The notes under the pieces were generated by a model. The model had not been told where the DNA came from. It worked only from the letters and a program-made list of their open reading frames with translations, and did not search any database. DNA of 64,000 nt, taken from a bacterium. GTDB lineage: Bacteria > RBG-13-61-14 > DATKZS01. Below, piece by piece: positions 7,742-59,263 of the stretch; within the stretch, counting starts at the first letter, position 1; each line of letters starts with the position of its first letter. The position numbers were made by a program, and so were the translations under genes. The DNA lies in NCBI GenBank assembly GCA_963674965.2, contig CAXXFL010000005.1:765150-829149 (forward strand), written 5' to 3'.

Positions 7742-7745
7742 AAAA

Positions 7746-41418: not shown

Positions 41419-42627
41419 TTACTCGGTCCCACCATGATTTTTGATGATTTGCGCAATTTCTTTATGGCCTTTTTCAAGCGCGGCCATATAAGGGGTTTTC
41501 CCATTACTGCACTTTGCATTTACGTCAGCCCCATTTTCGATTAGTAGTTCGACCATGCCTCTTTTGCCTTCCAAGGCCGCAATGTACAAAGGAGTCTCGC
41601 CTGATATAGTCCCCTTCGCATTGATTGTCGCGCCGTTTTGGATCAGGACCTTGGCGACTCTGACGTGATCAAATGCGCTGGCTATATGGAGAGGCGTCCA
41701 ATTATTTTCCTCCACAATGTCAACATTTACTCTTTTGGACAATAATAGCTCAGCTACTTCCACCGCATCCTTTCTTGCGGCCAAGTGTAAGGGACTTAAG
41801 TTTGCATTTTCTTCTGCGAGGTTAGGGTCCGCGCCCTTGGCAATCAGGTCCAAGGCCAAATCTGTCTGTCCCATTATAATTGACTTGTGCAGGGCCGTTT
41901 GTCCATCATTCGATTTGGCATCCAGGTCTATGCCTTTAGAGATAAGGATACGCGCAACATCCACTTTCTCCTGGGCGACCGCGAGTAATAGGGGAGTATA
42001 TCCGGCGTCGGTTCGAGCCCCCAAGTTTGCGCCTTTTTCGACCAGCAATTCTACGATCTTTTTTCGTCCCTGGAAGCTTGCTATGTGAAGGGCGGTCATG
42101 TCGTGTTCGGATTTAACATCAAGCTTGGCTCCTCTTTCCACTAGCAATCTCGCAACATCGTAATTGCCCATATTGGCGGCATGGTGCAGAGCCGTCATGC
42201 TTTGATTGTCCTGTACGTCGATCTCAGCTCCAGCGTTAAGTAACTGTTCGCAAGCCTCTCTCTGTCCTTTGTGTGCCGCCATCAACAGAGGCGTAAATCC
42301 AACCTTATCCGTGGCTTCAATATCCGCTCCATTAGCCAAGAGCAAGGTTATCATCTCATTATTTCCCAAGTGAGCGGCAAAGTGAAGAGGCGTATGATTT
42401 TTATATCTCTCTCTGGAGTTGACCTTTTTAGGCTTCTTTTCGAGTGTCTTCCTGACCTCGGATATATCACCATTTGCCACTGCCTGATGAATCTTTCCGC
42501 CCCATACAGTCTCAGGACATAAAAGAAAGAAAACCACCATAACTAGAAGTGGTTTTATAACCCCTTTTTGGCAACCGGAATTATGCGGCATCCCGCCTTC
42601 AATATAATTTTTACCTGATCGATCCAT
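41419..42627 (-). CDS. Exported ankyrin-repeat protein (about 10-11 repeats), AT-rich gene
   Basis: Hydrophobic N-terminus 'IKPLLVMVVFFLLCPETVWG', then tandem 'TPLH.AA..G....LL..GA' units. An alternative start at 42591 is possible. Confidence 0.85.
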   Translation of the reverse strand: MDRSGKNYIEGGMPHNSGCQKGVIKPLLVMVVFFLLCPETVWGGKIHQAVANGDISEVRKTLEKKPKKVNSRERYKNHTPLHFAAHLGNNEMITLLLANGADIEATDKVGFTPLLMAAHKGQREACEQLLNAGAEIDVQDNQSMTALHHAANMGNYDVARLLVERGAKLDVKSEHDMTALHIASFQGRKKIVELLVEKGANLGARTDAGYTPLLLAVAQEKVDVARILISKGIDLDAKSNDGQTALHKSIIMGQTDLALDLIAKGADPNLAEENANLSPLHLAARKDAVEVAELLLSKRVNVDIVEENNWTPLHIASAFDHVRVAKVLIQNGATINAKGTISGETPLYIAALEGKRGMVELLIENGADVNAKCSNGKTPYMAALEKGHKEIAQIIKNHGGTE

Positions 42628-43025: not shown

Positions 43026-44885
43026 TTATTTCATGGCTGTGGTATTGGTTACCTTCGGCTCGTGGCAGAAGGCGCAGTTGCCGATGCAGTCGGCCTCGGC
43101 GTTGCATCCCATGGCGTCTCCGTTCATGCGGTGACAGGTCAGGCACAGGCCGTGCATGGCGTGCTTGTAACCGGGCGCCCACCTGGTGACGCCCTTGCCA
43201 TAGAGCTTCTCGGCCGTCATGGGATACTGGCCGTCCTTGTCGTGGCACTCTACGCATCCCTTGGCCGTTGCCTCGGACTTTTCCTTGTACGACTCGTGGC
43301 ACTTGTCGCAGGAGTCGTTATTTCCCATCCGCTCCTTGTGTTTGTCGTGGTCGAAGATATCCGTGTCTACCGCCATGTCGGCGTGGCAGAGGTGGCAGGA
43401 GGTCGCATGGTCGTCGGGTCTTTCGAGGTGATGGCATTTCACGCAGGAGTCCTCGCCGCCCATCAGCTCCTGGTGGACGTCGTGGGGAAAGTTCACGTAC
43501 TCCGCGGAAAGGTTGCCGTCGATCTTCAGCACGGCCCTGGTCTCGTCTACTCCCTTCGCCTTCTCGACCGGCTGGGGAGTGGGCTCGAACTTGCTCGTGC
43601 CCTTGCCCAGGAAGGCCAGATAGGCCAAGGGTATGGTGATGACCACGATGAGCGACACCTTGAGGCCGTCCTTGAACTTGATCATGGAGAAGGCTTCCCG
43701 CAGCGTGAACTGGGGGGCCATGTCGTGATGGACTCCCTCGGCCTCGGGCACGTGGCAGGCCTCGGGGGCCTCGAGGATATAGAACCTCTCGAGGAGGAAA
43801 AAGAACAACAGGGCCGCCGCCGCGGGAACGCCAAGACAAACGACCATCTCGGCCAGGGAGGGAACGTAAACCCTCTCGGCGAAGCGGAAGTATCCCACGA
43901 AGCCCACGTCGAGACGGTGCATGACCAGCCCGATAAAGGCGGGCACGCTGAAGGCGTACAGGCCGGGCACGGTCTTTCTCCATTTGCCGCTTAGTCCGAT
44001 GATGACCGGTATTATGGCCTGGAGTGTAATTTCGATGAGGAATAGTTTTCCTTCCCAGCCGGCGTCCGAGCCGAACACCCAGTTCCACTTGCCCTCGGCC
44101 GTAAGCACGATGAGGCGGATGGCCAGGAAGATGGCCAGCAGGACCGCGGAAATCCTCGCCACGCCGGAGAGGACCTCGAGGTCGGGCTTTCTTCTATACA
44201 GCCACGAGACTATGAGCATGATGAGCACGATGGTGGCCATGCCCGCTCCCATGGCGGAGATGAAGAACTCGATCGGTATCCAGAAGGTGTGCCACAGGGG
44301 GTGGAGCCTGGTATAGGACAGCATGAAAAGGGAGCCCAGCGAGCTGTGGTGCATGGTCGAGAGGGTCACGCCCAGGGCGATGATGGGCAGGGCCATCTCG
44401 TGCAGGAAGTGGGTCAGCCGGGGAAAGGGAAAGCGCTCGAGGATAACGGGCACCATCTCGTAGGCGGTGATCATCCAGTAAACGGACACGCACCAGAAGA
44501 CCTCGAAGAGGAAGGAGTGTGGGTTCCAGATGAGGAACGGGTGCCATCCGCGCCATGGGAGACCGATGTCGAAAACGAGAGCCGTAAGTGACGCCCCGTA
44601 TCCGAGGAAGCCGATGAGCACGGCTATTCTTCCGATGGACCTGTATTTATCGGCGTACCAGATGTTAATGATAAAAGCTACCACGAATCCGGAGGTGGCG
44701 AGAGCGGCGCCGGCGACCATGTTGAAAATCTTCCACATGCCCCATGGCAGTCCGTCGGACATGTAGGACGCGGCGCCGAGTCCGAAGGCGAACCTTCCGA
44801 CCACGGCCACCAGGGCGGCGAAGGACATGACCCAGAGTATTTCTTTTATCCGCTTGAGGGCGGTGGAGTCGGACTTAATCATCAC
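43026..44885 (-). CDS. NrfD/PsrC/HmcC-type quinone-interacting membrane subunit fused to a C-terminal hexahaem cytochrome c domain
   Basis: About 10 TM segments with NrfD-like composition, one further TM, then six CxxCH motifs (CVKCH, CHLCH, CDKCH, CVECH, CLTCH, CAFCH). Confidence 0.85.
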   Translation of the reverse strand: MMIKSDSTALKRIKEILWVMSFAALVAVVGRFAFGLGAASYMSDGLPWGMWKIFNMVAGAALATSGFVVAFIINIWYADKYRSIGRIAVLIGFLGYGASLTALVFDIGLPWRGWHPFLIWNPHSFLFEVFWCVSVYWMITAYEMVPVILERFPFPRLTHFLHEMALPIIALGVTLSTMHHSSLGSLFMLSYTRLHPLWHTFWIPIEFFISAMGAGMATIVLIMLIVSWLYRRKPDLEVLSGVARISAVLLAIFLAIRLIVLTAEGKWNWVFGSDAGWEGKLFLIEITLQAIIPVIIGLSGKWRKTVPGLYAFSVPAFIGLVMHRLDVGFVGYFRFAERVYVPSLAEMVVCLGVPAAAALLFFFLLERFYILEAPEACHVPEAEGVHHDMAPQFTLREAFSMIKFKDGLKVSLIVVITIPLAYLAFLGKGTSKFEPTPQPVEKAKGVDETRAVLKIDGNLSAEYVNFPHDVHQELMGGEDSCVKCHHLERPDDHATSCHLCHADMAVDTDIFDHDKHKERMGNNDSCDKCHESYKEKSEATAKGCVECHDKDGQYPMTAEKLYGKGVTRWAPGYKHAMHGLCLTCHRMNGDAMGCNAEADCIGNCAFCHEPKVTNTTAMK

Positions 44886-45808
44886 TCGCCCTCCTTCCCC
44901 GAGTCCGGGCCCGGCCCGTCGTCATGGCATACCTCGTCGATAAATGCGGTCTGGGCGCCCTCGGGTCCGGCGGCCCCATGTTCTCCGTCGCCTCCGCTCA
45001 TAAGGTGGGAGCGTCTTTTTAAAAACCACATGCTCATGATGCCGCTAAAGAAGATAATAAACTGGAAAGGCGTCCACCAAACCCACGGCTCCACCTGGTG
45101 CGGTATGGACTGGGTGGACAGTTTCCCGGCGGCCATTTTTTTAAGCTTGGCCGGATCGGGTATTTTAAGGGCGTCGCCGAGGGGCACGTCCGAGATGTAC
45201 ATTACGGATGTCCCGCCGAACTCGCTCTCTCCCCAGATATGGTCGATGTACTTGCCGGGGTCCTTCTTGATCCTGTCCCTGGCCTCCTTGATGAGGTCGT
45301 CGCGGTCTCCGAAGATGGTGGCGCCCGTCGGGCAGGCCGCCACGCAGGAGGGGCGGTTGTCCCGCTCGCTGGCCCGGCACTCCTCGTTCATCTTGCACTT
45401 GACCACGTAGGGCACGGGCTTGTCCCACTCGTAGCGGGGGACCATGAAGGGACACGCCAGCATGCAGTAGCGGCACCCGATGCACTTGTCGGCGTCGTAA
45501 ACGACCGGCCCGTCCTCGCGCTTGTCGAACGCTCCGACCAGGCAGGCGGCCTTGCAGGCGGGATCGATGCAATGCATGCACTGCCGGCGCACGTTCCTTA
45601 TTTCCCCGGCGCTTTTGCCGGCTATCTTGACGATCGAGGTGAGCCTCCTGCCGCTCAGTCCGTCCTTCGCCTTGTAATGGGCGGGGACGTCCCTGGGCAG
45701 CTTGTTAGCCTGAACGCACGCCTCGACGCATCTCTCACATCCAATGCACTTGGTCACGTCGGTGAGGATGCCCTTCATTTTTCCGTTGCCGGAATGGCCC
45801 GAGCTCAT
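44882..45808 (-). CDS. 4x[4Fe-4S] ferredoxin-type subunit (HmcB/NrfC/HybA-like) with a C-terminal TM anchor
   Basis: 'CIGCERCVEAC', 'CMHCIDPACKAAC', 'CIGCRYCMLACP', 'CVAACPTGA' cluster motifs. TM 'WWTPFQFIIFFSGIMSMWFL'. Confidence 0.85.
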   Translation of the reverse strand: MSSGHSGNGKMKGILTDVTKCIGCERCVEACVQANKLPRDVPAHYKAKDGLSGRRLTSIVKIAGKSAGEIRNVRRQCMHCIDPACKAACLVGAFDKREDGPVVYDADKCIGCRYCMLACPFMVPRYEWDKPVPYVVKCKMNEECRASERDNRPSCVAACPTGATIFGDRDDLIKEARDRIKKDPGKYIDHIWGESEFGGTSVMYISDVPLGDALKIPDPAKLKKMAAGKLSTQSIPHQVEPWVWWTPFQFIIFFSGIMSMWFLKRRSHLMSGGDGEHGAAGPEGAQTAFIDEVCHDDGPGPDSGKEGE

Positions 45809-45855
45809 TAAAAGCCCTCCTTATATCCACCGCTGAGGATCGTCTCGGCGGCCTT

Positions 45856-47373
45856 TTATCGTTTGACGTGGCAATCGTCGCAATCGGTCGGACCGGCCAG
45901 CCTCTCGTGACAGACGATGCACGAGTCGTGCACCACGTCGCCCAGGCTGGGTATGCCCGTCCTCCATTCCTCGACCGGGTTCGTTTCCTTTTCCGATACG
46001 TGGCACTCGCCGCACTTGAGGGGAACGTCGGTCCCCTCGGGGCAGTCGAGGCCGCCGCATTTAAGGACCCGTTTGCCGTCCTTTTTCCAGGTATTGTGAT
46101 GGCACTCCCGGCAGGAGAAGGCCATGTCCTGGGCGTGGAACCGGTGCGACCAGTTGGCCTCGCCCTTGGAGGTCTGGTGCATGAACTGGCCAAAGCTCCT
46201 GTCCGGGGCGTGACACCCCTCGCACTCGGTGGGACCGTCTTTTTCCTTCTCGTGGCAGCCGATGCATCCGGTGGCCTCTCCGCCCTGGTTCCAGTGCATG
46301 GCGTCGGCCAGGGACGGCACGTCCTCGAACTGAAGATCGTCCCGCCCGTGACAGGCGCGGCAGGCCAGGTAAGGCTCGTTCTCCACGCCGCCGTGCTTGT
46401 GGTGGCAGACATTGCAGTCGCGCTCGGAGGGCGCGGCGTGACGCTCGTGGCTCCAGACCACGGTCCCGGCCGTTCCGCCGGGGAGCATGGACGGGTTCGA
46501 GCGGTGGCACTCTCCGCAGGTTATGGGCATGCCCTTGCCCGCGTCGGGATGATCGGCGTGGTGGCAATCGAGGCAACGCTCGTGCAGGGCCTCCTCGACG
46601 CTGGGCGCGCCCTCCTTGACGGCCATGCCGGTATGGCAGTCCACGCACCTTTCGGCGCCCAGCTCGGGGTTGTACTCGGTATGACAGGTGAAGCAACGCT
46701 TGTGCGCCAGTTCCTCGTGGTCCTCGATGCCCGTGCGCATGGAAAGGGACATTACCTCGGCCGGCTGGTGGCAGGAGTCGCAGGCCCGGTACTCGCTCTC
46801 GAGCACGGGCTTTTCCTCGGTCCCCTTGTCCTTGTGGTGGCAGTACTCGCAGTCCAGCTCCATGTAGCGGGAGTGCTCGCGGTGGTCCCACTCGACCTTG
46901 CCCATACGGCCGGTGAAGCGCTGCATATGGCAGTCGCGGCAACCCACGGGTCCCTGGTTCTTGACCACGTGGCAGCCCATGCACTTCGAGTGATAGGCGG
47001 TCATCGAGTCGCTCGCCGCGGGTCCCACGCCCTCCTCTTTTTTCATCATTTCCTTGAGGCGGACGTCGGCCAGCACCACGGAGTCGGCGCTGCTTTTCAG
47101 ATGGTGACAGTCCTTGCACGGCTTGGGCGTGGTGGCCCCGGCTTTTTCCGCCGCGTCCATGGCGGACTTGTGGTGGCAGTCGGTGCACTTGACGTCCTTC
47201 ATCCGGGCGTGAAGCTCATGATTCCAGATCACGTCGCCGATCCTGGCCGGCAGGGTATGGTCCGGCTCGCCGCTGGGGCGAAGGAGCATGCCTCCCGCGC
47301 CGGTCCCGATGAGCACCAATATGGCGGCCAACAGATACTCGACTTTGATTTGTTTACCTTTCACTGCTATCAT
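45856..47373 (-). CDS. High-molecular-weight multihaem cytochrome c (HmcA-like), 18 CxxCH motifs
   Basis: N-terminal signal/anchor, then 18 CxxCH motifs counted by eye, arranged in c3-like spacing with many extra His residues. Confidence 0.9.
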   Translation of the reverse strand: MIAVKGKQIKVEYLLAAILVLIGTGAGGMLLRPSGEPDHTLPARIGDVIWNHELHARMKDVKCTDCHHKSAMDAAEKAGATTPKPCKDCHHLKSSADSVVLADVRLKEMMKKEEGVGPAASDSMTAYHSKCMGCHVVKNQGPVGCRDCHMQRFTGRMGKVEWDHREHSRYMELDCEYCHHKDKGTEEKPVLESEYRACDSCHQPAEVMSLSMRTGIEDHEELAHKRCFTCHTEYNPELGAERCVDCHTGMAVKEGAPSVEEALHERCLDCHHADHPDAGKGMPITCGECHRSNPSMLPGGTAGTVVWSHERHAAPSERDCNVCHHKHGGVENEPYLACRACHGRDDLQFEDVPSLADAMHWNQGGEATGCIGCHEKEKDGPTECEGCHAPDRSFGQFMHQTSKGEANWSHRFHAQDMAFSCRECHHNTWKKDGKRVLKCGGLDCPEGTDVPLKCGECHVSEKETNPVEEWRTGIPSLGDVVHDSCIVCHERLAGPTDCDDCHVKR

Positions 47374-47475
47374 CCCTTTTCACGCGGGACGCCATATCCC
47401 GCGTCCGATTTGCGCCGGCGGCCTTTGCCGCTATCTTATTTTTTACGGCGGTCTTTTCCGCCCTGGTGTTTCAAA

Positions 47476-47952
47476 ATGTCCCGTTTCGGCATAATCATAA
47501 AAACTTCCGACGGCCGCGCCGTCGTCCGGACCTCGCGCCGGGGCGTTTGCGAGTCCTGTTCCGAGCGCGAGACCTGCACCTTCGAGACGGCGCTCGGTAA
47601 GGACGTCCCCGAGGAGGTCGAGGTTTTAAACCCGATCAACGCCTCGACCGGAGACGCGGTCGAGTTCGACCTGCCCGGCCATTCCGAGCTTAAGGTCTCC
47701 CTCCTCATCTGGGCCGTGCCCCTCGCCGGGCTTATTCTCGGCGGAGCGGCCGGCGCGCTGGCGGGCGACGCGCTGGGCGTCGACCCCAACCTGACCACCC
47801 TGGCCGGAGTGGCCGTCGGCCTCGCCGCCGGAATGCTTCCGGTCATCCTCATGGACCGCGCGGCCGCGAGCGACCCCAAATATACTCCCCGCGTAATCCG
47901 GGTCGTGCCCGTCTCCACCTGCCCGACCTCGGTCAGGGAAGACGCCCCCTGA
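47476..47952 (+). CDS. RseC/MucC-family (SoxR-reducing-system-type) membrane protein
   Basis: Only the last 158 codons of track ORF 45868..47952 are plausible: 'GIIIKTSDGRAVVRTSRRGVCESCSERETC' N-domain, then two Gly/Ala-rich TM helices. Confidence 0.7.
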   Translation: MSRFGIIIKTSDGRAVVRTSRRGVCESCSERETCTFETALGKDVPEEVEVLNPINASTGDAVEFDLPGHSELKVSLLIWAVPLAGLILGGAAGALAGDALGVDPNLTTLAGVAVGLAAGMLPVILMDRAAASDPKYTPRVIRVVPVSTCPTSVREDAP

Positions 47953-50172
47953 TCAGGGCGAGTTACGCAAAAGTTCCTCCAGCTTCTCGAGGCCCGACTT
48001 GTCGGTACCCTCGAGTATCTTTTTATGCTTGTCCTTCTCGGCGTCCGAGTAAAAACAGATCGTGCCGCAGCGCATGCACCGGTTGGCCTCCGCCTCGATA
48101 AGGTCCTGGGTAAGGTTCAGGTCGACCTCGTCGAAGCTCTTGATCCTCTCCTTGGCCGGAAGCTCGGGCTGAGGCTGCTTCGGGAGCTTGGCCACGCCGA
48201 ACACCGGCTCCTCGCCCGAGTCGGGGTTTCGCGTGGGCTTGTAGGACACGCCCTTGGGAAAGCGCATGTCCTTGCCCTCGAGATAAAGATGGATGCTCCG
48301 CGCCGCCTGCCTGCCCGTGCCGATGGCCTCGACCACCAGGCCCGGACCGGTCCAGATGTCGCCCGCCGTAAAGATGTGGGGCACGGTCGATTGAAGCGTT
48401 TCCTCGTCGGCCACGATGGTGGCCCACCTGGTCAGTTCGAGGCCCCGCTCCTTCATGTCATCGCTCAGCCAGTCGGTGCGGGGCCGCTGGCCGATGGCGG
48501 CGATGACCACGTCCACGTCCATCAGGGTCTCGGACCCCTCCTTGGGAACGGGCCGGCGACGTCCCGAGGCGTCGGGCTCTCCCAGTTCCATCTGGATGTA
48601 CTCGATCTGTTTTAACTTGCCGTCCTCGCCGGCGATCAGCCTGGTGGGGGCCGCCAGGAAGTGGTACTGCACTCCCTCGTGCTCGGCCGCCACTATCTCG
48701 ACGTCGTTGGCGGGCATTTCCTTCCTGGTGCGGCGGTAAAGGAGGATGACCTCGGCCGCGTTCATGCGCAGGGAGCTGCGGCAGGCGTCCATGGCGGTGT
48801 TGCCGCCGCCCACCACCACCACGCGCTTGCCCGCCAGGTCCACCTTGATCCCCAGCTCTCTTTTCTGGAGGAACTCGGTGCCCTTCCAGACGCCCTCCAT
48901 GTCCTCGCCCTCGACGCGGAGGGACGAGTTGTCCCACGCTCCCATGGCCAGGAGGATGGCGTCGAACTCCTTCTCGAGCTCGGCTATCTTGATGTCCGTT
49001 CCCAGGTTGACGTTGTATTTCGCCTCGACGCCCAGGTCGAGAATCTCCTGGATTTCCCAGTCGAGTATCTTCTTGGGCAGCCGGTACTCGGGGATGCCGT
49101 AGCGGAGCATGCCGCCGTAGGCCGGCTTGTTGTCGAAGATGGTGACGGCGTGACCCATCCTGCGCAGGAAGTAAGCCGCCGTCAGGCCGCAGGGACCGCC
49201 GCCGATGACGGCCACCTTCTTGCCCGTGTCGGGCAGGCACGAGGGCTTCTTGCGCTCGGGCAGGGCCCTTTCCCAGTCGGCCACGAAACGCTTGATATAG
49301 TTATGATGGACCGGCTCGTCCTCGATGGCGACCCTCCTGCATCCGGCCTCGCAGGGGGCCGGGCACACGCGGCCGCACACCAGGGGCAGGGGGTTCCTTT
49401 CCTTGATGATATTAACCGCCTCCTCGTATTTGCCCTCGGCCGCGAACTCGACGTAGGCCGGGATGTCGATCTGGGCCGGGCAGAGCTGCTTGCAGGGGGC
49501 CAGGCACTCGTCGCTCGTATTGAAATGGAGGAGTCTCTGTGAGGTCGAGTACAGATGGATGACGTCCATGGGACAAATCTTTTCGCAGGTCCCGCAGCCC
49601 ACGCACTTGGAGGCGTCCACCTCGGGCGTTCCCTCGGGCCCCATCTTCAGGGCGCCGAAGGGGCAGGCCTCGACGCAGGAGCCAAGGCCCAGGCAGCCGT
49701 GCTTGCACCAGATGTCCCCGCCCCATACCTCGGCCATGGCCCGGCAGTCCATTACGCCGTCGTAGTAATATTTCTTGACCGCCCGATAGCCGCCGTTGCA
49801 GTAGTGGTCGGCGATTTTAGGCTCGACGAACCCGACCTCGCCGCCCATGACCTTTGCCACCTTGGCCGCCACGTCGGGGCCGCCGGCAATGCAGGCGTTC
49901 ACGGGCGCGTCACCGGCCACGATGGCCTCGGCGCAGGCCGAGCACCCGGTGAAGCCGCAGCCGCCGCAGTTGGCGCCCGGCAGGGAGTCCTCGACCTGGA
50001 CCACGCGGGGGTCGACCTCGACGTGGAATATTCGGGAGGCCGCCGCCAGGACTATGGCCGCCACGCCGCCCACCGCCAGCATCAGCAGCATGGGCAAAAG
50101 GGTCAGCATGGTCGGGTTGCCAGAATAACTCGCGTAAATGTCCTGCATTATTTTCGCGATAGAGTCCATCAC
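47953..50172 (-). CDS. rnfB: RnfB fused to a GltD/NfnB-like NAD(P)H-dependent FAD/FeS oxidoreductase module
   Basis: N-terminal TM plus 'NCGGCGFTGCSACAEAI' and two ferredoxin CxxCxxCxxxCP motifs. Then 'CGRVCPAPCEAGC', 'VAVIGGGPCGLTAAYFL', 'VVVVGGGNTAMD', 'IFTAGD'. Confidence 0.85.
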   Translation of the reverse strand: MMDSIAKIMQDIYASYSGNPTMLTLLPMLLMLAVGGVAAIVLAAASRIFHVEVDPRVVQVEDSLPGANCGGCGFTGCSACAEAIVAGDAPVNACIAGGPDVAAKVAKVMGGEVGFVEPKIADHYCNGGYRAVKKYYYDGVMDCRAMAEVWGGDIWCKHGCLGLGSCVEACPFGALKMGPEGTPEVDASKCVGCGTCEKICPMDVIHLYSTSQRLLHFNTSDECLAPCKQLCPAQIDIPAYVEFAAEGKYEEAVNIIKERNPLPLVCGRVCPAPCEAGCRRVAIEDEPVHHNYIKRFVADWERALPERKKPSCLPDTGKKVAVIGGGPCGLTAAYFLRRMGHAVTIFDNKPAYGGMLRYGIPEYRLPKKILDWEIQEILDLGVEAKYNVNLGTDIKIAELEKEFDAILLAMGAWDNSSLRVEGEDMEGVWKGTEFLQKRELGIKVDLAGKRVVVVGGGNTAMDACRSSLRMNAAEVILLYRRTRKEMPANDVEIVAAEHEGVQYHFLAAPTRLIAGEDGKLKQIEYIQMELGEPDASGRRRPVPKEGSETLMDVDVVIAAIGQRPRTDWLSDDMKERGLELTRWATIVADEETLQSTVPHIFTAGDIWTGPGLVVEAIGTGRQAARSIHLYLEGKDMRFPKGVSYKPTRNPDSGEEPVFGVAKLPKQPQPELPAKERIKSFDEVDLNLTQDLIEAEANRCMRCGTICFYSDAEKDKHKKILEGTDKSGLEKLEELLRNSP

Positions 50173-50223: not shown

Positions 50224-50835
50224 TCAGATCATGCCCTTGAAGGCGAAAAAGCTAAGGGCCAGAAGGCCGGCCGTGACAAGGCCGATCCCCGTTCCATCCA
50301 ACACCTTGGGTATCCGGGATATCTCGAACTTCTCCCGGATGCCGGCGAAAAGAATCAGCGCCAGCCCGAAGCCGCAGGCCGCGGCGGCGGAGTAAACCAG
50401 GGCCACGATCAGCTCGTGGCCGGCCCAGACCTTGGTGTACTCCTTGAAATTTTTTATGTTCAGGAGCGTGACGCCCATGACGGCGCAGTTGGTCGTTATC
50501 AGGGGCAGGAAGATACCGAGCGACTTGTAAAGGGCCGGTATGGATTTTCTCAGGAACATCTCGACGAACTGGACCAGGGTGGCTATAACCAGGATGAAGG
50601 CCAGTGTCTGAATATACTCGAGCTTAAGGGGCTTAAGGAACATGAAGTAGGCCAGCCAGGTGAAAAGGGCGGCCAGGGTCAGGACGAAGACGACGGCCCC
50701 CGCCATTCCCACGGCCGTGTCCATTTTCTTGGACACGCCCAAAAAGGGGCAGTTGCCGAGGAACTGGGCCAGCAGTATGTTGTTGATAAAGATGGCCGCC
50801 ACAACCAGGGCGATCATATCCGTGAAGACTTCCAT
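50224..50835 (-). CDS. rnfA: Rnf complex subunit A
   Basis: 'NNILLAQFLGNCPFLGVS' and a 6-TM layout. Confidence 0.9.
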   Translation of the reverse strand: MEVFTDMIALVVAAIFINNILLAQFLGNCPFLGVSKKMDTAVGMAGAVVFVLTLAALFTWLAYFMFLKPLKLEYIQTLAFILVIATLVQFVEMFLRKSIPALYKSLGIFLPLITTNCAVMGVTLLNIKNFKEYTKVWAGHELIVALVYSAAAACGFGLALILFAGIREKFEISRIPKVLDGTGIGLVTAGLLALSFFAFKGMI

Positions 50836-50847: not shown

Positions 50848-51456
50848 TTACTTGTTGCCCAGCTTGCCGAGCACGTTCATCACGCCGAGCATAAGGCCAA
50901 GGGCCATGAAGGCGCCGGGGGCCTGCTGGAGGATGGCGAAGGGCTCGAAATTAAGGCCCATGGCCTCGAAAAGCTTCCACCCGAAAATCTCGCCGGCGCC
51001 GAAAATTTCCCTGAGTCCGCCCAGCACGGTAAGGGACATGGTAAAGCCGAGTCCCATTCCCAGCCCGTCGGCCATGGAGGCGATGACTCCGTTCTTTTTG
51101 GCGAAGGCCTCTGCCCTTCCCAGTATGATGCAGTTGACCACGATCAGGGGAATGAATATTCCCAGGCTCTCGTAAAGAGGATACACGAAGGCCTTGGTGA
51201 ACATCTCGACGCAGACCACGAATGTGGCCACGATCACGATGTAACACGCGACCCTGACCTCGTCGGGTATGACCTTTCTGAGGGCGGAGATGAAGACGTT
51301 GGAGCAGACCAGGACGAAGGTCGCGGCCAGCCCCATGCCTATTCCGTTTTCCATGGACGTGGTTACGGCCAGGGTCGGGCATAGTCCCAGCACGAACCGG
51401 AAAGGAGGAATCTCCTTCCATAGTCCCTTGGTAAATTCCTGAGTGATGGTACTCAT
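50848..51456 (-). CDS. rnfE: Rnf complex subunit E
   Basis: 'FRFVLGLCPTLAVTTS' and 'IIVNCIILGRAEAFA'. Confidence 0.9.
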   Translation of the reverse strand: MSTITQEFTKGLWKEIPPFRFVLGLCPTLAVTTSMENGIGMGLAATFVLVCSNVFISALRKVIPDEVRVACYIVIVATFVVCVEMFTKAFVYPLYESLGIFIPLIVVNCIILGRAEAFAKKNGVIASMADGLGMGLGFTMSLTVLGGLREIFGAGEIFGWKLFEAMGLNFEPFAILQQAPGAFMALGLMLGVMNVLGKLGNK

Positions 51457-51474: not shown

Positions 51475-52095
51475 TTATTTAACGGCCTCTTCAAGCTCGT
51501 CCTTGTGTTGGTCATAGGTTGCCTTGGCTTTTCTGATGGCGTCGGCCACGGCCCCGCTGGACTTGGTAGCCCCGCTCACCTGGTCGATGATCCCGCCGTT
51601 TTTCTTGATCTTGAAGACGGAGTCCTTGCTCATGCCGATGAACTGATGCTGGAAGGCGGGCTCAGTAACCCTGGCGCCCAGGCCCGGGGTCTCAGAGTGA
51701 GTGGTGATACCGATGCCGTCCAGGTTTCCCGACTGGATATTGAAGCCGACCATGACGCCGATGTTGCCGCCGTAGCCGCCCTCCCCCTCGCGCTCGATCA
51801 CGATGGTGTTTGGCTTGCCGTCTTTTTTCGTCACGAACATAAGAAGTTCCTGTTCCTCTCCGACGTCAATCATTTTATAGCTGGAGAGAAGCTCTTGCGT
51901 GACCTTTTCCTCGTCCGCCTCGCTCATCTTGCCGGAAACTCCCTCGATGATGCTTATCACGGCCGGGACCTTTTTAAACTTGAGCACGTTCTGCTCGCCC
52001 TTTTCCTTGGTGAGCCTGTTAAGTCCGCCGAGGGCGATTCCGCTGATGAGGCTTATTCCCACCAGGACGACGATCATTTTGATCATGTTACCCAT
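51475..52095 (-). CDS. rnfG: Rnf complex subunit G (FMN_bind domain)
   Basis: N-terminal TM anchor. 'HSETPGLG' and the covalent-FMN site context 'DQVSGATKSS'. Confidence 0.85.
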   Translation of the reverse strand: MGNMIKMIVVLVGISLISGIALGGLNRLTKEKGEQNVLKFKKVPAVISIIEGVSGKMSEADEEKVTQELLSSYKMIDVGEEQELLMFVTKKDGKPNTIVIEREGEGGYGGNIGVMVGFNIQSGNLDGIGITTHSETPGLGARVTEPAFQHQFIGMSKDSVFKIKKNGGIIDQVSGATKSSGAVADAIRKAKATYDQHKDELEEAVK

Positions 52096-53074
52096 TTTGG
52101 ATCACCACCTCCGTAACCTTGGGCCTGATCCTGTCAAGCAAGGGGTTAAGGACGTTGGACAAAAGCACGGCGAAGGGTATGGCGTCGGGCCATTGTCCAT
52201 AGGTCCGAATCAGCATTATAAGGAGTCCCATGCATATCCCGAAGAGCCAGGCGGGCAGATTGTTGGTGGGGGAGCTGGTCGAGTCCGTTGCCAGGAAGAA
52301 GGCCGCAATAATGACGTGTCCGGAAATAAATTGAGCGGCCATGATCTCGGCCAGAGACCCGCCGCCCAGTTTTTCCGGCGCCACCGACCCGAAGATCAGC
52401 GAGCCCAGGATTACGCCGCCGATCACGGCCGCTGGTATCTGCCACCTAATATGGCCGAGGGCGCAAAGTGCGATCCCGCCGGCGGCGGTGGTAAGGATCA
52501 CGGCGAAGTGGGCCGAGGCGATGCTTTTCATTCCCACCGGATAGATATGGTGGGGCCATGAAAGAAGGAGTATAAGCCATCCCACCATGGCCGGATGGAA
52601 CGGATAACTTCCGATGCCGCCGTAAAGCTGCTTGCCGATGAGTATGGCCAGGAACACGCCGATGACCAGGGTCCACCAGGGCACCGAGACGGGCATGAAC
52701 ATGGCCACTAAAAGTCCCATCAGTGCCCCGTGTCCGTTCATGGCGTGATAGGGCTGGCGGAAGAGCACCTGGATCAGGTACTCGGCCGCGACCCCGACGC
52801 CCATGCCCATGGCCAGGACCCCGCCGGCCCCGATCGAGGCGAGGAGGCCGGGACTGATCCCGAACTCCCGAACGATGGACCCGAGAAGCCACTCGAGCCC
52901 CGTGGCCCGGCCGAGGACGTGCATTTCATCGGTCATGAACCCGTGGGCTATGACCCCGATGGCGGCCGCCGGAAGAAGCGCCAGAATGAAGGCGTAGTTC
53001 ATCTGGGTGACGCTCGTCTTCGAGCGCCAGTGCGGCCCGGGACCCACGGTGAACAAAGTCTCTCTAGACTCCAT
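52088..53074 (-). CDS. rnfD: Rnf complex subunit D
   Basis: Polytopic NqrB/RnfD-like protein. 'AAFFLATDSTSSPT' matches the flavinylation-site region. Confidence 0.9.
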   Translation of the reverse strand: MESRETLFTVGPGPHWRSKTSVTQMNYAFILALLPAAAIGVIAHGFMTDEMHVLGRATGLEWLLGSIVREFGISPGLLASIGAGGVLAMGMGVGVAAEYLIQVLFRQPYHAMNGHGALMGLLVAMFMPVSVPWWTLVIGVFLAILIGKQLYGGIGSYPFHPAMVGWLILLLSWPHHIYPVGMKSIASAHFAVILTTAAGGIALCALGHIRWQIPAAVIGGVILGSLIFGSVAPEKLGGGSLAEIMAAQFISGHVIIAAFFLATDSTSSPTNNLPAWLFGICMGLLIMLIRTYGQWPDAIPFAVLLSNVLNPLLDRIRPKVTEVVIQNG

Positions 53075-53104: not shown

Positions 53105-54475
53105 TCATCCGGCCGAGGCCTCGGAGACGGCCGGCTCGTTTTGTTCCTTGCAAGCCTCTTCCGCCTCTTCCCGCGCTTTCTTATCCTTGGCCTTTTGTTC
53201 GGCCTCGTTTCTAATCCTTGTTACTTCCCGCTTGGCGAGCCGGATCATCTGCACCAGCGGCCTCCTGGCCGTGCAGACCATGGCGCAAAGACCGCATTCG
53301 ACGCAGTTCATGACTCCCAGGTCGTCGGCGGGCTCGAAGATCGAGAACTCCGAGTATCTTCCCAACAGGCTGGGCTGGAGGTTGACCGGGCACACCGACA
53401 CGCAGGCGCCGCAGCTTACGCAGGGCTCGTCGCTCCAGGGTAATATGTTTTCCCGGGGAATGAGCATGACCGCGTCCAGCCCGGCGTCCACCGGGGCCTC
53501 GAGCGAGTACTGGGCGATGCCCCGGAGGGGGCCGCCGGCCAATACCTTGTCGCCGTCCCTGGGCTTGAGTCCCATGAAGGCGAACAGGTCCTTTAGCTTG
53601 GCGCCGATGGGAGCGCGAAGGTTGGCCTTGGCCTCCCCTTTTGGCCCGATAAAGGTGACGACCTTTTTATCCTGGACCTTGCCGTCCCGGATGGCGTCCA
53701 GGGCCGCCAGGGCCGTTCCCGCCGTGATAACGCGGACGCCCTTGCCGCCGCCGGCCCTAAGGGCCACCATGGGCTTCAAGGTCATGGGGTACTCGGGGGG
53801 CACGGAAAGGACCTTGACGCCCGTGCCGCCGGCCGACTTGCCCGTCTGGCCCGCGCTTTTGTCATGGGCCGCCACGTAAACGTCCTTGGCCCCGGCCATC
53901 TTGCCCAGGACCTTGGCCGCGATGAAAACGTCCTCGGACCTCCAGCGGAAAACCTCGGAGGTCGAGAAGACCTCGGGCTCGCGGTCAGAGGCAAGCACCA
54001 CCAGGGTCTCGACCTCGACGTCCGCCTCGGGACCAATGATCTCGCCCAGGGGCCTGGGCGTATAGGACTCGGTCAGTATGCCGGCCTCGGCCACCCTGGC
54101 CCAAAGTTCCCGGGCCGAGGCGGTTTCCGGGTCCATGGGCTTCCAGGCGACGGGTGAAGAATCGGGATCGGGATCGACGGCCACCGAGTGGCCCACGTAA
54201 TGGTTCCTGGCGTCGGGACCGGATATCACGCCCACTACCTTGCCCTTTACCGGGCAGACCACGGCCTTTTTAACGCCGTCGCTTCCCAGGAACTGGCCGG
54301 GCTTGACCTGGTCCCCCTCCTTGACCAGGGCCTCGTAGGGGACCCCGGTCCCGCTGAAAAGCGGGAAGACGAGGCTCGAGGACGCGGCCGCGTCCTTGAT
54401 GGCCAAGTGCTGGGATTTAAGTGGGAACTTCGGCCGCCTAAACCCGAAGAGCCTATCCGTAATTTCGTCAAACAT
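53105..54475 (-). CDS. rnfC: Rnf complex subunit C, atypical (flavin/NADH glycine motif not found)
   Basis: RnfC N-terminal barrel ('VKEGDQVKPGQFLG'), 'LAGGPLRG', and two 4Fe-4S motifs 'CVSCGACVSVCP' and 'CVECGLCAMVCT'. It sits first in the rnfCDGEAB order. Confidence 0.8.
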   Translation of the reverse strand: MFDEITDRLFGFRRPKFPLKSQHLAIKDAAASSSLVFPLFSGTGVPYEALVKEGDQVKPGQFLGSDGVKKAVVCPVKGKVVGVISGPDARNHYVGHSVAVDPDPDSSPVAWKPMDPETASARELWARVAEAGILTESYTPRPLGEIIGPEADVEVETLVVLASDREPEVFSTSEVFRWRSEDVFIAAKVLGKMAGAKDVYVAAHDKSAGQTGKSAGGTGVKVLSVPPEYPMTLKPMVALRAGGGKGVRVITAGTALAALDAIRDGKVQDKKVVTFIGPKGEAKANLRAPIGAKLKDLFAFMGLKPRDGDKVLAGGPLRGIAQYSLEAPVDAGLDAVMLIPRENILPWSDEPCVSCGACVSVCPVNLQPSLLGRYSEFSIFEPADDLGVMNCVECGLCAMVCTARRPLVQMIRLAKREVTRIRNEAEQKAKDKKAREEAEEACKEQNEPAVSEASAG

Positions 54476-54842: not shown

Positions 54843-56372
54843 ATGGCGAGAGTGGTAATAGGTCTGGACGTTTCCGGCGCGGGCTGGAAGTACGCAGTGG
54901 CGGCGGGACCGTCAAAAGACAGGATCAGGGTCATCGAGTATGGCCGTTTCGATCCTCCACCCGTGGACTTCGACTACCTTTTCTCCGACGAGATGGACGA
55001 GATCGATCTCGAGGAAAAGGTCTCCGAGTGGGCCGAGGCCTTTTACGCCAAACTCGAGCCCTATCTTGGCTCGGACCCGGACGTGGTGGTGGGCATTCCC
55101 CGCGAGTTGGTGACCATCCGCTCTCTTGACGTTCCCTTTACCAAGGACTCCCGCATCGCCCAGGTCCTGCCTTACGAGGCCGAGGCCAGCCTGGCCTTGG
55201 ACGCGGACGAGTTGGTCTTCGATTTCTACGCCCTCGGGTCCCGCGAGGAGGAAACCAGGGTGCTGGCCGCGGCGGTCGAGCGCGAGAAGATACACTCCCT
55301 GCTGACCCTTTTCAAGCTGGTGGGAATCGACCCCATGGTCGTGGCGCCCACTCCCCTTTCCCTCCATCACCTGGGTCGCGTGACCGGACCGGCCGCTAAC
55401 GGGGTCCCCTCTCGGACCGGCTACCTTCAAATCGAGAACGGCGGCGTCTTCTTAACGGTAACCGAGCAAGATAAAAGCGTTTTCACCGCCTCGTTCCACG
55501 CGAGCGAAGACGAGGGACCTTCAACCGGCGCCGGGACAAGCCTTCTCCAGAACATTGGACGGGCCATTCATTATCTCGAGGGTTTCAAAACGGTCGGCGC
55601 CGGATGCCCTCCTCCCTTGAAGAAACTTTTCGTGACCGGAGACCCCGCCAAGGTGGGGCCAACCGTTTCCGAGTTGGAACAACGGCTGGGCCTCGAGGTC
55701 ATGCCCTTTAAAATTGCGCCCGCCGCCGTGACGGAGGACACCCAGCTCAATCCGGATCGGGACCTGGCCATGGCCACGTCACTGGCCCTTGCTCTCCAGG
55801 GGATGTCCACCGGCAAAAAGGCGGGGCTTAATTTCAGAAAGGGAGAGTTCTCCTTCCGCCACGAGCGCAAGGCATTGATAAAAAAGGCTATATTCCCAGC
55901 CACCTTGCTGGTGACCCTTGTTTTATCCATTGTCTTCAGCGCCTCGGTTACGGGTTCGTCCTCAGACGAGAACTCGGCCGCTATCGTGGACCTTATGAAA
56001 AAGGAGTTCGCCGCCTATTTTCCCGGCGAGCCCATTGTCGATCCCACCGTCCAGATCAAAAACAAGCTGGACGAGACCAAGGCCAAGAAAATCAAGTACG
56101 AGGACCTTTCCAACCCCTCGGCTCTTACCGTCATGGCCGCCTTGTCCAGCGCCGTTCCCGACGACCTGGTTGTAACCATAACCAGTTTCGATTTCAAGGG
56201 CGACAAGCTGGTCCTGAAAGGAGAATGCGAGGAACTGGACATACCCAACAAGGTGGCCAAGGAACTCGAGAAGGTACCCATATTTAAAAAGGTGGACCTT
56301 GGCAATGTAACTTCCGGTAAAGAAAAGAAATTCACCATAGATATCGACCTGAGGGAGAAGGGACGGCCATGA
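54843..56372 (+). CDS. GspL-like type II secretion / PilM-PilN-like assembly protein
   Basis: Actin-like N-domain 'VVIGLDVSG...VVVGIPRELVTIRSLDVPF...VLPYEAEASLALDADELVFDF', a single TM (~aa 345-365), and a periplasmic ferredoxin-like C-domain. Confidence 0.55.
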   Translation: MARVVIGLDVSGAGWKYAVAAGPSKDRIRVIEYGRFDPPPVDFDYLFSDEMDEIDLEEKVSEWAEAFYAKLEPYLGSDPDVVVGIPRELVTIRSLDVPFTKDSRIAQVLPYEAEASLALDADELVFDFYALGSREEETRVLAAAVEREKIHSLLTLFKLVGIDPMVVAPTPLSLHHLGRVTGPAANGVPSRTGYLQIENGGVFLTVTEQDKSVFTASFHASEDEGPSTGAGTSLLQNIGRAIHYLEGFKTVGAGCPPPLKKLFVTGDPAKVGPTVSELEQRLGLEVMPFKIAPAAVTEDTQLNPDRDLAMATSLALALQGMSTGKKAGLNFRKGEFSFRHERKALIKKAIFPATLLVTLVLSIVFSASVTGSSSDENSAAIVDLMKKEFAAYFPGEPIVDPTVQIKNKLDETKAKKIKYEDLSNPSALTVMAALSSAVPDDLVVTITSFDFKGDKLVLKGECEELDIPNKVAKELEKVPIFKKVDLGNVTSGKEKKFTIDIDLREKGRP

Positions 56373-56899
56373 GCCTGGAAGCACGGGAAAAGAAATTCCT
56401 CGGCATCGGGGCTATCGCTTTTGTCTTGATAGTTGCCATCTGGCTTGTCACGGGCGGTGATTCCGGGACCAGGGGCGGAGATTCGAAAAGGGTCGCTCAA
56501 AAACAGGAGACCTTTCATAAGGACCTGAAGGATTACCTCGAGATCAAGGACTCGGTCGAAAAGATCGATCAGAGGCTGTCCAAAACTCCGGAGAATTTCG
56601 ATCTGGCAGGAGAGCTCAACGAGATATTCGACTCCCTGGGAATCAAAAACGCCATCAGGAGCCTCAACCCCACGGACGCCGGCGCCAACGACTTTTACTC
56701 GGCCTCCTACGTGGACATTAAAATAGACGAGATATCCCTTGACGACCTGGTCAGCCTGCTGGTTAAGATCGAGTCGTCCGACGCCTTTATCAAGGTGGAC
56801 AAACTCACGGTCAGAAGAAGGTTCAAGGACAACGCCCTGGATATAAATATCAGGGTCGCCGCCTACTCGGCCAAGCTCGAAGAGGCCCCTCCCAAATGA
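56369..56899 (+). CDS. GspM/PilO-like bitopic protein
   Basis: 4-bp overlap with the upstream gene. N-terminal TM 'FLGIGAIAFVLIVAIWLV'. The C-domain resembles GspM. Confidence 0.45.
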   Translation: MSLEAREKKFLGIGAIAFVLIVAIWLVTGGDSGTRGGDSKRVAQKQETFHKDLKDYLEIKDSVEKIDQRLSKTPENFDLAGELNEIFDSLGIKNAIRSLNPTDAGANDFYSASYVDIKIDEISLDDLVSLLVKIESSDAFIKVDKLTVRRRFKDNALDINIRVAAYSAKLEEAPPK

Positions 56900-57828
56900 A
56901 CGGCTGGAAAAGGATAGTGCTTGGCGGCCTCGGATACCTCCTCTTCTTCGTCGTCTCCCTGGTACTCTTCACCTTCTTAACCTTCGACCCCACCATGTTC
57001 GCGCCCCGCATCGAGCGGGCGGCCAAGGACGGCGGGATAACCCTTCAGATTCAAAAGATTTCCCTCAAGGGCCTCGGGGGCCTCGAGATGCGGGGAGTTA
57101 AAGTCTCCCCCGCGGCCAAGCCTCAGGAAGGCGAAGGGGAGGCGGCCGATCCACCGACTCCCATGGTCATCGACCGGCTCATTGTAAAGCCCAAGCTCAC
57201 TACCCTGCCGGGCCTTTTAACGGCGGCCAGGGACAACAAGCCGCCCCGTATCGAGGCCGCCTTTTCCGCCCGGGTCGGGGAGGGCGAGATCGAATCGGGC
57301 TTTCTCTCCTTTTACGGGGAATCCCTTTCCGCGGAGGCCGAGGCCAAGTCTTTTCCCCTGGCTCGGGTCCCGCTCTCCGGGTTTGAAATCAAGGGCCTCA
57401 AGTTCTACGCCCCCACCTTGTCCGGCTCCATGGACGCCAAGGTGAAGCTGGAAATGGGAAACCGGAAAAACCCCGACACCTGGAACGGGGACGTCCAGCT
57501 GGACCTGAAAAATCCGGGCATAAGCGAACTGAAAAACGCGATTATCGCTTTTCCCGGACCGAAAATGCAAAGCGGAAACCTCAAGGCGAAAATCGACAGG
57601 GGGTTGGTAACGGTCAGTTCCCTTAAACTGGTGGGCGACGACATGCCCATGAACTTTACCGGGACCATCAAGTTAAACCCCAATTTCGCCGCGTCCATGT
57701 CTGAAATTAACGGGACCATCGAGTTCAGCGAGTCCTTCAAATCCAGGCTGGACCCCACCTTCGCCCAAATGCTTCCGCCCAAGAAAATCGAGTATAAAGG
57801 ACCCATCGGAAAACTGGCCGCCTGGTAA
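56896..57828 (+). CDS. GspN-like type II secretion protein
   Basis: 4-bp overlap with the upstream gene. N-terminal TM 'IVLGGLGYLLFFVVSLVLFTFL'. The beta-rich periplasmic domain is typical of GspN in deltaproteobacteria-like T2SS loci. Confidence 0.45.
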   Translation: MNGWKRIVLGGLGYLLFFVVSLVLFTFLTFDPTMFAPRIERAAKDGGITLQIQKISLKGLGGLEMRGVKVSPAAKPQEGEGEAADPPTPMVIDRLIVKPKLTTLPGLLTAARDNKPPRIEAAFSARVGEGEIESGFLSFYGESLSAEAEAKSFPLARVPLSGFEIKGLKFYAPTLSGSMDAKVKLEMGNRKNPDTWNGDVQLDLKNPGISELKNAIIAFPGPKMQSGNLKAKIDRGLVTVSSLKLVGDDMPMNFTGTIKLNPNFAASMSEINGTIEFSESFKSRLDPTFAQMLPPKKIEYKGPIGKLAAW

Positions 57829-58971: not shown

Positions 58972-59263
58972 GACAACGGGCCTTTTCGCCGGCTTTCCGG
59001 CAATGCATTTAATTTTCCTCAGGGCGCATAATCCTAAAAACGGCAGTTGGTAATTCCGCCAGGGCTTCAAAGATTATATAATATCAGTTGTGTAGGTCAA
59101 ATTCTGCAATTTCAGGTTGGTATCTCCATGAATTCTGGGGGAATTGTGGGGACAGAATTGTGGGGACAGCATCCTTATCTCGTTTGAACTGTGGACAATC
59201 GTATATGAGAACGACGGCGTAAAGCATGTCAGCTTGGAAGGCATTAATACGCGACCCTAAACC

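Follow-up and report, generated by a model that had tools for sequence, protein, structure and literature searches.

A fused RnfB–GltD subunit in a variant rnf operon, a candidate NAD(P)H:cytochrome c oxidoreductase

Which redox couple does an Rnf-type ion pump work on when its RnfB subunit carries a pyridine-nucleotide flavoprotein? The question is raised by a bacterial DNA stretch of 64,000 nucleotides (contig CAXXFL010000005.1, positions 765,150 to 829,149; referred to as the window), in which the gene in the rnfB position encodes RnfB fused to a GltD/NfnB-type oxidoreductase module. The Rnf complex is normally treated as a ferredoxin:NAD+ (nicotinamide adenine dinucleotide) machine, and genome-based metabolic models score 'Rnf present' accordingly. 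The original prediction, made from the sequence of the window, described an uninterrupted open reading frame (ORF) of 739 codons in the rnfB position of an rnfCDGEAB operon and proposed that the fusion changes the redox couple of the pump. This ORF was found on the minus strand, where it closes the operon, and all of the motifs quoted in the prediction are present in its translation. Our analysis suggests, with a probability of roughly one in two, that the operon encodes a reversible, ion-coupled NAD(P)H:cytochrome c oxidoreductase, which is a derived Rnf-type pump.

The fused RnfB subunit and its cofactor sites

Profile scans with Pfam and NCBIfam detected both modules, fused in frame as had been predicted. 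Pfam assigned an iron-sulfur (FeS) domain (PF04060) to residues 64-95 (E 2.8e-11), two Fer4 units to residues 160-205, Fer4_20 (PF14691) to residues 223-303 (E 1.9e-24), and Pyr_redox_2 to residues 318-620 (E 4.3e-36). The NCBIfam RnfB models span residues 25-232 (E 4.5e-51), and PRK12771, a GltD-like NAD(P)-binding model, spans residues 221-710 (E 1.7e-153). The probable start codon is the ATG at position 50169, one codon after the GTG and behind an AGGTGG ribosome-binding site, and the database copy of the protein is 738 aa long. Database names of the fused subunit are generic ('FAD-dependent oxidoreductase', 'glutamate synthase beta subunit-like', 'formate dehydrogenase beta subunit').

To evaluate whether rnfB had been joined to a separate gltD-like gene by an assembly or frameshift artefact, homologues were collected by a search that covered 5.8 billion proteins, and the best 120 clusters at 90% identity were considered. 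Nearly all of these clusters were 680-738 aa long, contained both modules, and shared 54-76% identity with the fused protein. The architecture is common to at least 120 protein clusters from independent assemblies, and the more than 100 independent full-length homologues derive from four data sources (NCBI, JGI, ENA, and Logan assemblies). In an alignment of 68 sequences the junction, 27 Cys residues, and both nucleotide-binding folds were invariant. We compared the gene order in 19 loci, of which L001-L012 were fetched as genome loci and L013-L019 were added by exact look-up, and all 19 had the fused RnfB in the rnfB position of an rnf operon with the operon context kept. An additional Desulfovibrio-type rnf locus (L020) has no rnfB after rnfA and is uninformative. 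The conservation of both the fusion and its junction rules out the artefactual join, in favour of which nothing was found, and we regard its probability as negligible. The top 150 representatives at 50% identity included 7 fused clusters of full length and 4 partial ones, down to 39% identity, and the remaining representatives were StnC/NfnABC-like proteins of ~1100-1250 aa. The fusion is thus almost certainly genuine, and on these sequence comparisons it is a real family of modest size.

The RnfB module begins with a transmembrane (TM) helix, followed by a single-cluster FeS domain (C69, C72, C77, and C94) that is equivalent to the 'B8' domain of Acetobacterium woodii, and by a core ferredoxin domain with Cys residues at positions 125, 143, 156, 160, 166, 170, 190, 193, 196, and 200. 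All of these Cys residues are invariant in the 68 sequences. In the alignment, residues 25-214 correspond to residues 6-196 of A. woodii RnfB (9eri_B), a stretch that runs from the TM helix through the mobile 'B8' domain to the core, and the module also aligns with residues 5-203 of Clostridium tetanomorphum RnfB. The C-terminal polyferredoxin of RnfB, for which the role of a positively charged 'fishing hook' that catches ferredoxin has been suggested in A. woodii, is missing in the fused protein, and the flavoprotein module occupies exactly that place. Domain profiles, alignments, and a fold match agree with the earlier proposal that a flavin/pyridine-nucleotide site is located on the canonically ferredoxin-accepting subunit. 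The proposed change in the redox couple is well founded, since the module takes the place of the C-terminal polyferredoxin part of RnfB.

The GltD module is predicted to contain two [4Fe-4S] sites, formed by C227, C231, C266, C270, C274, and C278, all six of which are invariant, together with K294. The fold for flavin adenine dinucleotide (FAD) has GGGPCG at residues 324-329, and the NAD(P)H fold has GGGNTAMD at residues 455-462 followed by YRR at residues 479-481. Both the sequence and the predicted fold assigned the GltD-like NADPH domains of Bfu-type transhydrogenases as the closest solved relatives, namely 9bov_A (Caldicellulosiruptor Nfn-ABC), 9n5u_A (Thermococcus sibiricus NfnABC), and 8oh5_C (Sporomusa StnABC), with ~40% identity over ~490 residues and Foldseek E values of 1e-51 to 1e-49. 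NfnB/NfnL, GltD, and DPD were the next nearest. The AlphaFold2 (AF2) model of the fused protein had a predicted local distance difference test score (pLDDT) of 82.5, which exceeded 90 over most of residues 230-640, and a predicted template modelling score (pTM) of 0.77.

The FAD of the Bfu-type GltD domain does not bifurcate electrons; it accepts a hydride from NADPH and passes the electrons one by one into an FeS chain, and the FAD-adjacent cluster has a Lys ligand in StnC (K170) and T. sibiricus NfnA (K165), whereas the ligand is Glu in the bifurcating NfnL (PMC10482914, PMC12018979). K294 of the fused protein, which is at least 90% conserved in the 68-sequence alignment, aligns with StnC K170, and the invariant R364 aligns with StnC R239, an Arg near the FAD. 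The segment YRRTxxEMPA of the NADPH fold is identical to that of the NADPH-specific Bfu-type enzymes. In addition, an invariant C-terminal motif, RC699xxC702xxxC706, corresponds to the Cys motif that StnC has right behind its GltD insertion, and the counterpart of C223 is StnC C100, just ahead of this insertion. From this alignment, a third [4Fe-4S] cluster may be held by C223, C699, C702, and C706 at the domain base, where it would connect the GltD domain to the ferredoxin domain of RnfB. The fused module thus shares all of the features tested for the StnC/NfnA-type GltD domain (Cys pattern, nucleotide folds, Lys ligand, and fold), and it likely binds both FAD and NAD(P)H and supplies RnfB with electrons. 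Since the motifs match those of NADPH-specific enzymes, NADPH is the probable substrate over NADH. A bifurcating flavin of the NfnB type was also considered and is disfavoured, since K294 is the Lys-type ligand of the non-bifurcating StnC/NfnA class.

Altered and retained sites in the other Rnf subunits

Upstream of the fused gene, rnfC, rnfD, rnfG, rnfE, and rnfA are located on the same strand, so that six Rnf subunits are encoded together. RnfC of the window gave no match to Complex1_51K or SLBB at normal Pfam thresholds. When it was forced on Complex1_51K, it scored 16.5 bits (cut-off, 31.2 bits), starting from profile position 22, whereas a canonical RnfC used as a control (P0184) scored 181 bits; SLBB scored 54 bits in the control and had no match in the window protein. 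Alignment with three solved RnfC structures revealed GILTESYTPRP...LASDREPEVFS where GIVGMGGATFP...NAAECEPYLT is expected, that is, GILTESYTPRP replaces the GxGGAxFP motif and SDREPE replaces ECEPY, and a deletion of 10 residues removes the 'VPxGGLPxDVG' loop. The two [4Fe-4S] motifs are kept, although one Cys of the first cluster is lost in some relatives (P0126, P0145). The variant RnfC proteins form a discrete clade of 58 clusters with at least 36% identity, the edge of which is marked by a fall in score from 248 bits to the 170 bits of the first canonical RnfC; a PF01512 match is recorded only in P0127 and a PF10531 match in none. The window RnfC also gave weak matches to NqrA, although its sequence is nearer to RnfC. 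It is therefore very likely that RnfC no longer binds NADH and flavin mononucleotide (FMN), as judged from its motifs.

RnfD is altered as well. IASAH is found at the position of A. woodii T156 (TGATPL), the Thr that carries covalent FMN, and the motif [ST]G[AS][TS]P was found in none of 92 members of the variant RnfD family. Of the riboflavin ligands, N123 is replaced by His (HPA). The window RnfC and RnfD fall below the NCBIfam cut-offs for rnfC and rnfD, respectively. The same losses in RnfC and RnfD (GGAxFP, ECEP, and others) were observed in every related locus examined and were only partial in L017. In that locus (5783-7995) RnfC retains 'LGGNG' and a weak 51K match, and RnfD has a loop of canonical length with 'HGLSPL' where TGATPL is expected, which may represent an intermediate form. 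In three relatives (P0154, P0160, P0167) a single protein of 765-784 aa combines the variant RnfC with the variant RnfD. As these sequences indicate, the original prediction is incomplete, because the change exceeds a fusion and includes the loss of cofactor sites in RnfC and RnfD.

The loss of the NADH/FMN site of RnfC and the covalent-FMN site of RnfD indicates that the complex is not simply an NADPH:NAD+ version of Rnf. An ion-translocating transhydrogenase, which would oxidize NADPH at the fused RnfB and reduce NAD+ at RnfC, would agree with the operon order, with the Rnf-like character of all six subunits, and with the probable binding of NADPH to the fused module. RnfC, however, has neither the GGAxFP and ECEP motifs nor the Complex1_51K domain, and RnfD lacks the FMN Thr that is required en route to RnfC. 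This reading was rejected on the motif analysis of RnfC, and we consider it very improbable.

In contrast to these two subunits, RnfA, RnfE, and RnfG retain their cofactor ligands. The four Cys residues of the membrane [2Fe-2S] cluster align with C25 and C113 of A. woodii RnfA and with C25 and C108 of RnfE, and phmmer comparison with the A. woodii proteins gave E values of 1.7e-58 (RnfA) and 1.1e-63 (RnfE). RnfG, whose best NCBIfam model is the Desulfovibrio type (RnfG_DVU2794), contains VSGATKS, a predicted flavinylation site, and [ST]GAT is present in 15 aligned relatives. The Na+-pumping step of the A. woodii enzyme is placed at the RnfA/E [2Fe-2S] cluster, which is reduced and re-oxidized between RnfB and RnfG, and RnfD only transfers electrons. 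Since pumping is assigned to RnfA/E and not to RnfD, the path from RnfB via RnfA/E to RnfG would be enough for coupling. By analogy with A. woodii, the conserved parts (the RnfB core, RnfA/E, and RnfG) are the pumping parts, and the degraded parts (RnfD-FMN and RnfC-FMN/NAD) are the return path to NAD+.

The retention of the RnfC FeS motifs, which have no obvious role, would be explained if ferredoxin were still a substrate and docked on the di-cluster domain of RnfC or on the RnfB core, so that the complex would be a ferredoxin:NADP+ oxidoreductase or a bifurcating or confurcating ferredoxin/NADPH/cytochrome enzyme. Free-standing NfnB-like proteins do work as ferredoxin:NADP+ oxidoreductases, and L013 encodes a 2-oxoacid:ferredoxin oxidoreductase at a distance of ~6 kb from the operon. 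In Rnf, however, ions are imported when electrons flow from the C side to the B side. Judging from the A. woodii mechanism, an exergonic transfer of ferredoxin electrons to NADP+ coupled to ion import would conserve no energy. In addition, K294 marks the non-bifurcating class of the flavoprotein, and the RnfB tail proposed to catch ferredoxin is replaced. A role for ferredoxin is thus quite improbable.

Multihaem cytochromes and the proposed electron path

If neither NAD+ nor ferredoxin is used at RnfC, the complex would need another redox partner, and the neighbouring multihaem cytochrome c is the most likely one. In the window, the cytochrome gene is followed by genes for HmcB- and HmcC-like proteins, and this block is syntenic in 9 of L001-L012, namely in those with sequence past rnfB; it stands directly after rnfB in L003, L005, L008, and L012. 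A TM-anchored multihaem cytochrome c of the c3 family, with 4 to 19 haems, is encoded beside the rnf genes in the window and in 15 of the 19 loci (the same 9 of L001-L012, plus L013, L014, and L016-L019). In more distant lineages, too, the operon has a cytochrome gene, which is divergent and of the 19-haem type in L013 and L014 and of the 4-haem type in L017. L016 has a 6-haem cytochrome upstream and an 8-haem gene that overlaps the stop codon of the fused rnfB. L018 (uncultured Pseudodesulfovibrio) and L019 (metagenome-assembled genome (MAG) of Desulfovibrio sp.) encode a 10-haem DhcA-like cytochrome, and their fused RnfB proteins are 49-51% identical to that of the window. The cytochromes of these loci have an N-terminal TM anchor and the first haem at around residue 60. 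Two are exceptions, with the first haem at residue 155 in the upstream 6-haem protein of L016 and at residue 97 in the L013 ORF as called.

Cytochrome-linked Rnf complexes have been described. The Rnf of Methanosarcina hands electrons to the multihaem cytochrome MmcA, and for the Rnf of Desulfovibrio, which has DhcA alongside, a role as ferredoxin:cytochrome c3 oxidoreductase has been suggested. We infer the following electron path, together with its cytochrome partner, the use of NADPH over NADH, the ion coupling, and the physiological direction. The cytoplasmic electron site would be the FAD of the GltD/NfnA-type module, which would react with NAD(P)H, probably NADPH, and the use of ferredoxin at RnfB and of NAD+ at RnfC would have been abandoned. 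Electrons from NADPH would pass via FAD and the [4Fe-4S] clusters of the fused module, of which there are two or possibly three, to the RnfB clusters, and from there to the membrane [2Fe-2S] cluster of RnfA/RnfE, which would be the ion-coupling step. They would then be transferred to the periplasmic FMN of RnfG and to the membrane-anchored multihaem cytochrome c, and in the window the cytochrome would deliver them through the HmcABC-like module to the quinone pool or to other periplasmic redox partners. In the forward direction the oxidation of NADPH would export Na+ or H+, whereas in the reverse direction the ion gradient would drive the reduction of NADP+ by electrons of reduced cytochromes.

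Electrons that enter from NAD(P)H via the fused RnfB could instead leave by an exit similar to that of the Na+-translocating NADH:quinone oxidoreductase (NQR). After RnfG, the riboflavin of RnfD and the clusters of RnfC would reduce menaquinone, as the riboflavin in NqrB does, and the neighbouring cytochromes would be unrelated or would only be downstream users of quinol. The changes in RnfC resemble NqrA, which itself has no NADH/FMN site, as reflected in the weak NqrA matches; the riboflavin ligand D249 of RnfD is kept, and so are the [4Fe-4S] motifs of RnfC in most members. Moreover, a published scenario for the origin of NQR involves the replacement of RnfB by an NADH-oxidizing flavoprotein and the degradation of RnfC. 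Against this exit, however, the covalent FMN of RnfD, which links the FMN of RnfG to riboflavin, has no attachment site in 92 of 92 members, the other riboflavin ligand, N123, is His, and the first RnfC cluster has lost a Cys in P0126 and P0145. It would also leave the synteny of the cytochromes across lineages unexplained. A quinone exit of this type is unlikely, yet it stays alive because the retained RnfC clusters and D249 have no role in the cytochrome path.

Several other points weigh against the NAD(P)H:cytochrome c path. Every step past cofactor binding is deduced from sequence, and NADPH is the probable substrate, rather than NADH, on motif similarity only. The AF2 model of the fused protein is weak over residues 112-210. 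No cytochrome was found within 10 kb of the operon in L015, and the cytochrome operon of the window forms a transcription unit of its own, set apart from the rnf operon by an opposite-strand rseC gene. In D. alaskensis, which has an Rnf operon with DhcA and an RnfB that may be fused or plain, dhcA mutants had almost no fitness defect.

Relation to known complexes and the surrounding locus

The operon encodes the same six subunits in the same rnfCDGEAB order as the Rnf complex (RnfABCDGE, ferredoxin:NAD+ oxidoreductase; 7ZC6, 8AHX, 9ERI), and the RnfA/RnfE Cys residues, the RnfG flavinylation motif, and the TM helix, B8-type domain, and core ferredoxin domain of RnfB are kept. It differs in three defining features, the NADH/FMN site of RnfC, the covalent FMN of RnfD, and an RnfB that consists of polyferredoxin only, the C-terminal part of which is replaced here by an FeS-FAD-NAD(P)H module of 500 residues. 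Na+-NQR (NqrABCDEF) resembles the present complex in having an NAD(P)H flavoprotein on one TM helix in the RnfB/NqrF position and an RnfC/NqrA subunit in which the NADH/FMN motifs are lost, which fits the proposed Rnf-to-Nqr transition. Na+-NQR also runs electrons of the NADH level via the homologous NqrD/E centre, and the favoured cytochrome path would be functionally parallel to it and to Rnf-MmcA of Methanosarcina, where a cytochrome c is the exit. By sequence, however, the subunits are of the Rnf type and not of the Nqr type. The flavoprotein is of the GltD/NfnA type with [4Fe-4S] clusters (Pyr_redox_2/Fer4_20), whereas NqrF has an FNR-like FAD domain and a [2Fe-2S] cluster. RnfC keeps both [4Fe-4S] motifs, in contrast to NqrA, which has no cofactor, and RnfD differs from NqrB in lacking the covalent-FMN Thr, with the riboflavin ligands partly kept.

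The presence of a multihaem cytochrome c gene beside the rnf genes is shared with the Methanosarcina Rnf-MmcA system and the Desulfovibrio dhcA-rnfCDGEAB(F) operon. The likeness to Desulfovibrio extends to RnfG, which is nearest to the Desulfovibrio model, and to RnfD, the nearest outgroup sequences of which are from Desulfovibrionaceae and Desulfobulbaceae. The characterized cytochrome-linked Rnf complexes, however, use ferredoxin via an ordinary RnfB, which is a polyferredoxin in M. acetivorans, whereas the donor module is NAD(P)H-linked here. D. vulgaris Hildenborough has the same operon type with an RnfB of 30.9 kDa, which is hence unfused. L018 (6066-12947) and L019 (5028-11931) each contain a DhcA-like gene, an RnfC that lacks the 51K domain, rnfDGEA, and a fused RnfB of 699-701 aa, so that fused and unfused RnfB alternate within one operon family. 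Of the closest known flavoproteins, which also include NfnB/NfnL (4YLF and 5JCA), the Bfu-type GltD domains (StnC/Sporomusa NfnA, 8OH5; T. sibiricus NfnA, 9N5U; and Caldicellulosiruptor Nfn-ABC, 9BOV) match the GltD module in the Cys pattern, the Lys ligand, the Arg, YRR, and the trailing Cys motif. In contrast to these enzymes, the module is attached to a membrane-anchored RnfB and not to a NuoG/FdhF-like scaffold or an NfnA/NfnS partner, and no HydBC-like bifurcating module is located nearby.

By its own terms, the original prediction would be refuted if the architecture were widespread and already characterized. It is moderately widespread, but no paper that describes or characterizes it was found: in the open-access full-text literature searched, structural papers included, neither an RnfB-GltD fusion nor an NAD(P)H-linked Rnf is described, and a 2025 RNF/NQR review does not mention the fusion. 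We tentatively propose that within the RNF/NQR superfamily the operon stands for a third functional class, that of ion-translocating NADPH:multihaem-cytochrome-c oxidoreductases. With a similar degree of reserve, its origin may be akin to the module swap proposed for Na+-NQR, in that a flavoprotein was grafted onto the RnfB anchor and the RnfC site decayed; the flavoprotein would be a different one, and the exit would be periplasmic and not to quinone. If so, the proposed Rnf-to-NQR transition would have a living parallel in this operon.

If the proposed path is true, sulfate reducers, SAR324-type organisms, and other anaerobes would have a complex that links their cytoplasmic NADPH pool directly, reversibly, and in an energy-coupled manner to the periplasmic cytochrome, quinone, or extracellular electron network. 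It may allow ion-gradient-driven production of NADPH from the electrons of H2, formate, sulfur, or an electrode. A new site of coupling between NADPH and periplasmic cytochromes would be present in Desulfovibrionaceae and in MAGs labelled as SAR324, Planctomycetota, and Acidobacteriota, which bears on the old question of the role of the cytochrome beside the rnf genes in sulfate reducers. The fused family would be mis-scored by the metabolic models mentioned above, and the meaning of 'Rnf present' would change in several anaerobic lineages. Since Desulfovibrio and Pseudodesulfovibrio are among the genera with the fusion, the proposal is perhaps directly testable if a cultured strain carries it.

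The coordinates of the operon and of the adjacent genes are given in Table 1.

Table 1. Genes and modules of the variant rnf operon and the adjacent cytochrome operon (positions in the window)
Feature	Position	Strand	Remarks
rnfB-gltD fusion gene	47953..50172	minus	739 codons from GTG; stop 47953-47955
RnfB module, residues ~1-215	49528..50172	minus	assigned by Pfam, NCBIfam, and alignments to solved/known RnfB
GltD/NfnB-type module, residues ~216-710	48043..49527	minus	assigned by Pfam, NCBIfam, alignment, and fold match
rnfA	50224..50835	minus	both membrane [2Fe-2S] Cys kept (GNCPFLG, TTNCAV)
rnfE	50848..51456	minus	both membrane [2Fe-2S] Cys kept (GLCPTLA, VVNCIIL)
rnfG, periplasmic FMN subunit	51475..52095	minus	SGAT flavinylation motif kept
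rnfD-like	52088..53074	minus	covalent-FMN Thr absent; D249 kept
rnfC-like	53105..54475	minus	NADH/FMN motifs lost; two [4Fe-4S] Cys motifs kept
rseC/mucC-like small membrane protein	47473..47952	plus	convergent with the fused gene; syntenic in most relatives
membrane-anchored 18-haem cytochrome c, c3/HmcA-like	45856..47373	minus	proposed periplasmic partner
HmcB/HybA-like 4x[4Fe-4S] protein	44882..45808	minus	syntenic
HmcC/NrfD-like quinone-interacting membrane protein with C-terminal 6-haem cytochrome c domain	43026..44885	minus	

The stop codons of the fused rnfB and the rseC-like gene abut within the palindrome TGATCA (47950-47955), leaving no intergenic space. The proteins of the HmcABC-like set (43026-47373, minus strand) all score below the NCBIfam cut-offs, and the set is a distinct relative of the Hmc/Nhc complexes; its HmcB-like FeS protein has no obvious signal peptide. 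In L016 (2928-12792) a Tmc-like trio, which consists of a Fer4+CCG protein, a membrane protein of 233 aa, and a 6-haem cytochrome c, stands directly before the variant rnf operon.

Divergent from rnfC, a GspL/PilN-like gene and two small membrane-protein ORFs without a Pfam match are located at 54843-57828 on the plus strand, and these genes are possibly a fragment of a system for type II secretion or for the assembly of pili. An ORF of 299 aa at 58171-59070 (minus strand) has no Pfam match and a GC content at third codon positions (GC3) of 0.47. It is the second compositionally atypical gene of the region, the other being that for a protein of 402 aa with at least 8 ankyrin repeats at 41419-42627 (minus strand), the GC3 of which is 0.48 compared with ~0.8 in neighbouring genes. 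The ankyrin-repeat gene adjoins an ORF at 39983-40999 (plus strand) that resembles, by eye, an IS3-family transposase, and the two probably form an island, gained by horizontal transfer, that lies just downstream of the cytochrome genes.

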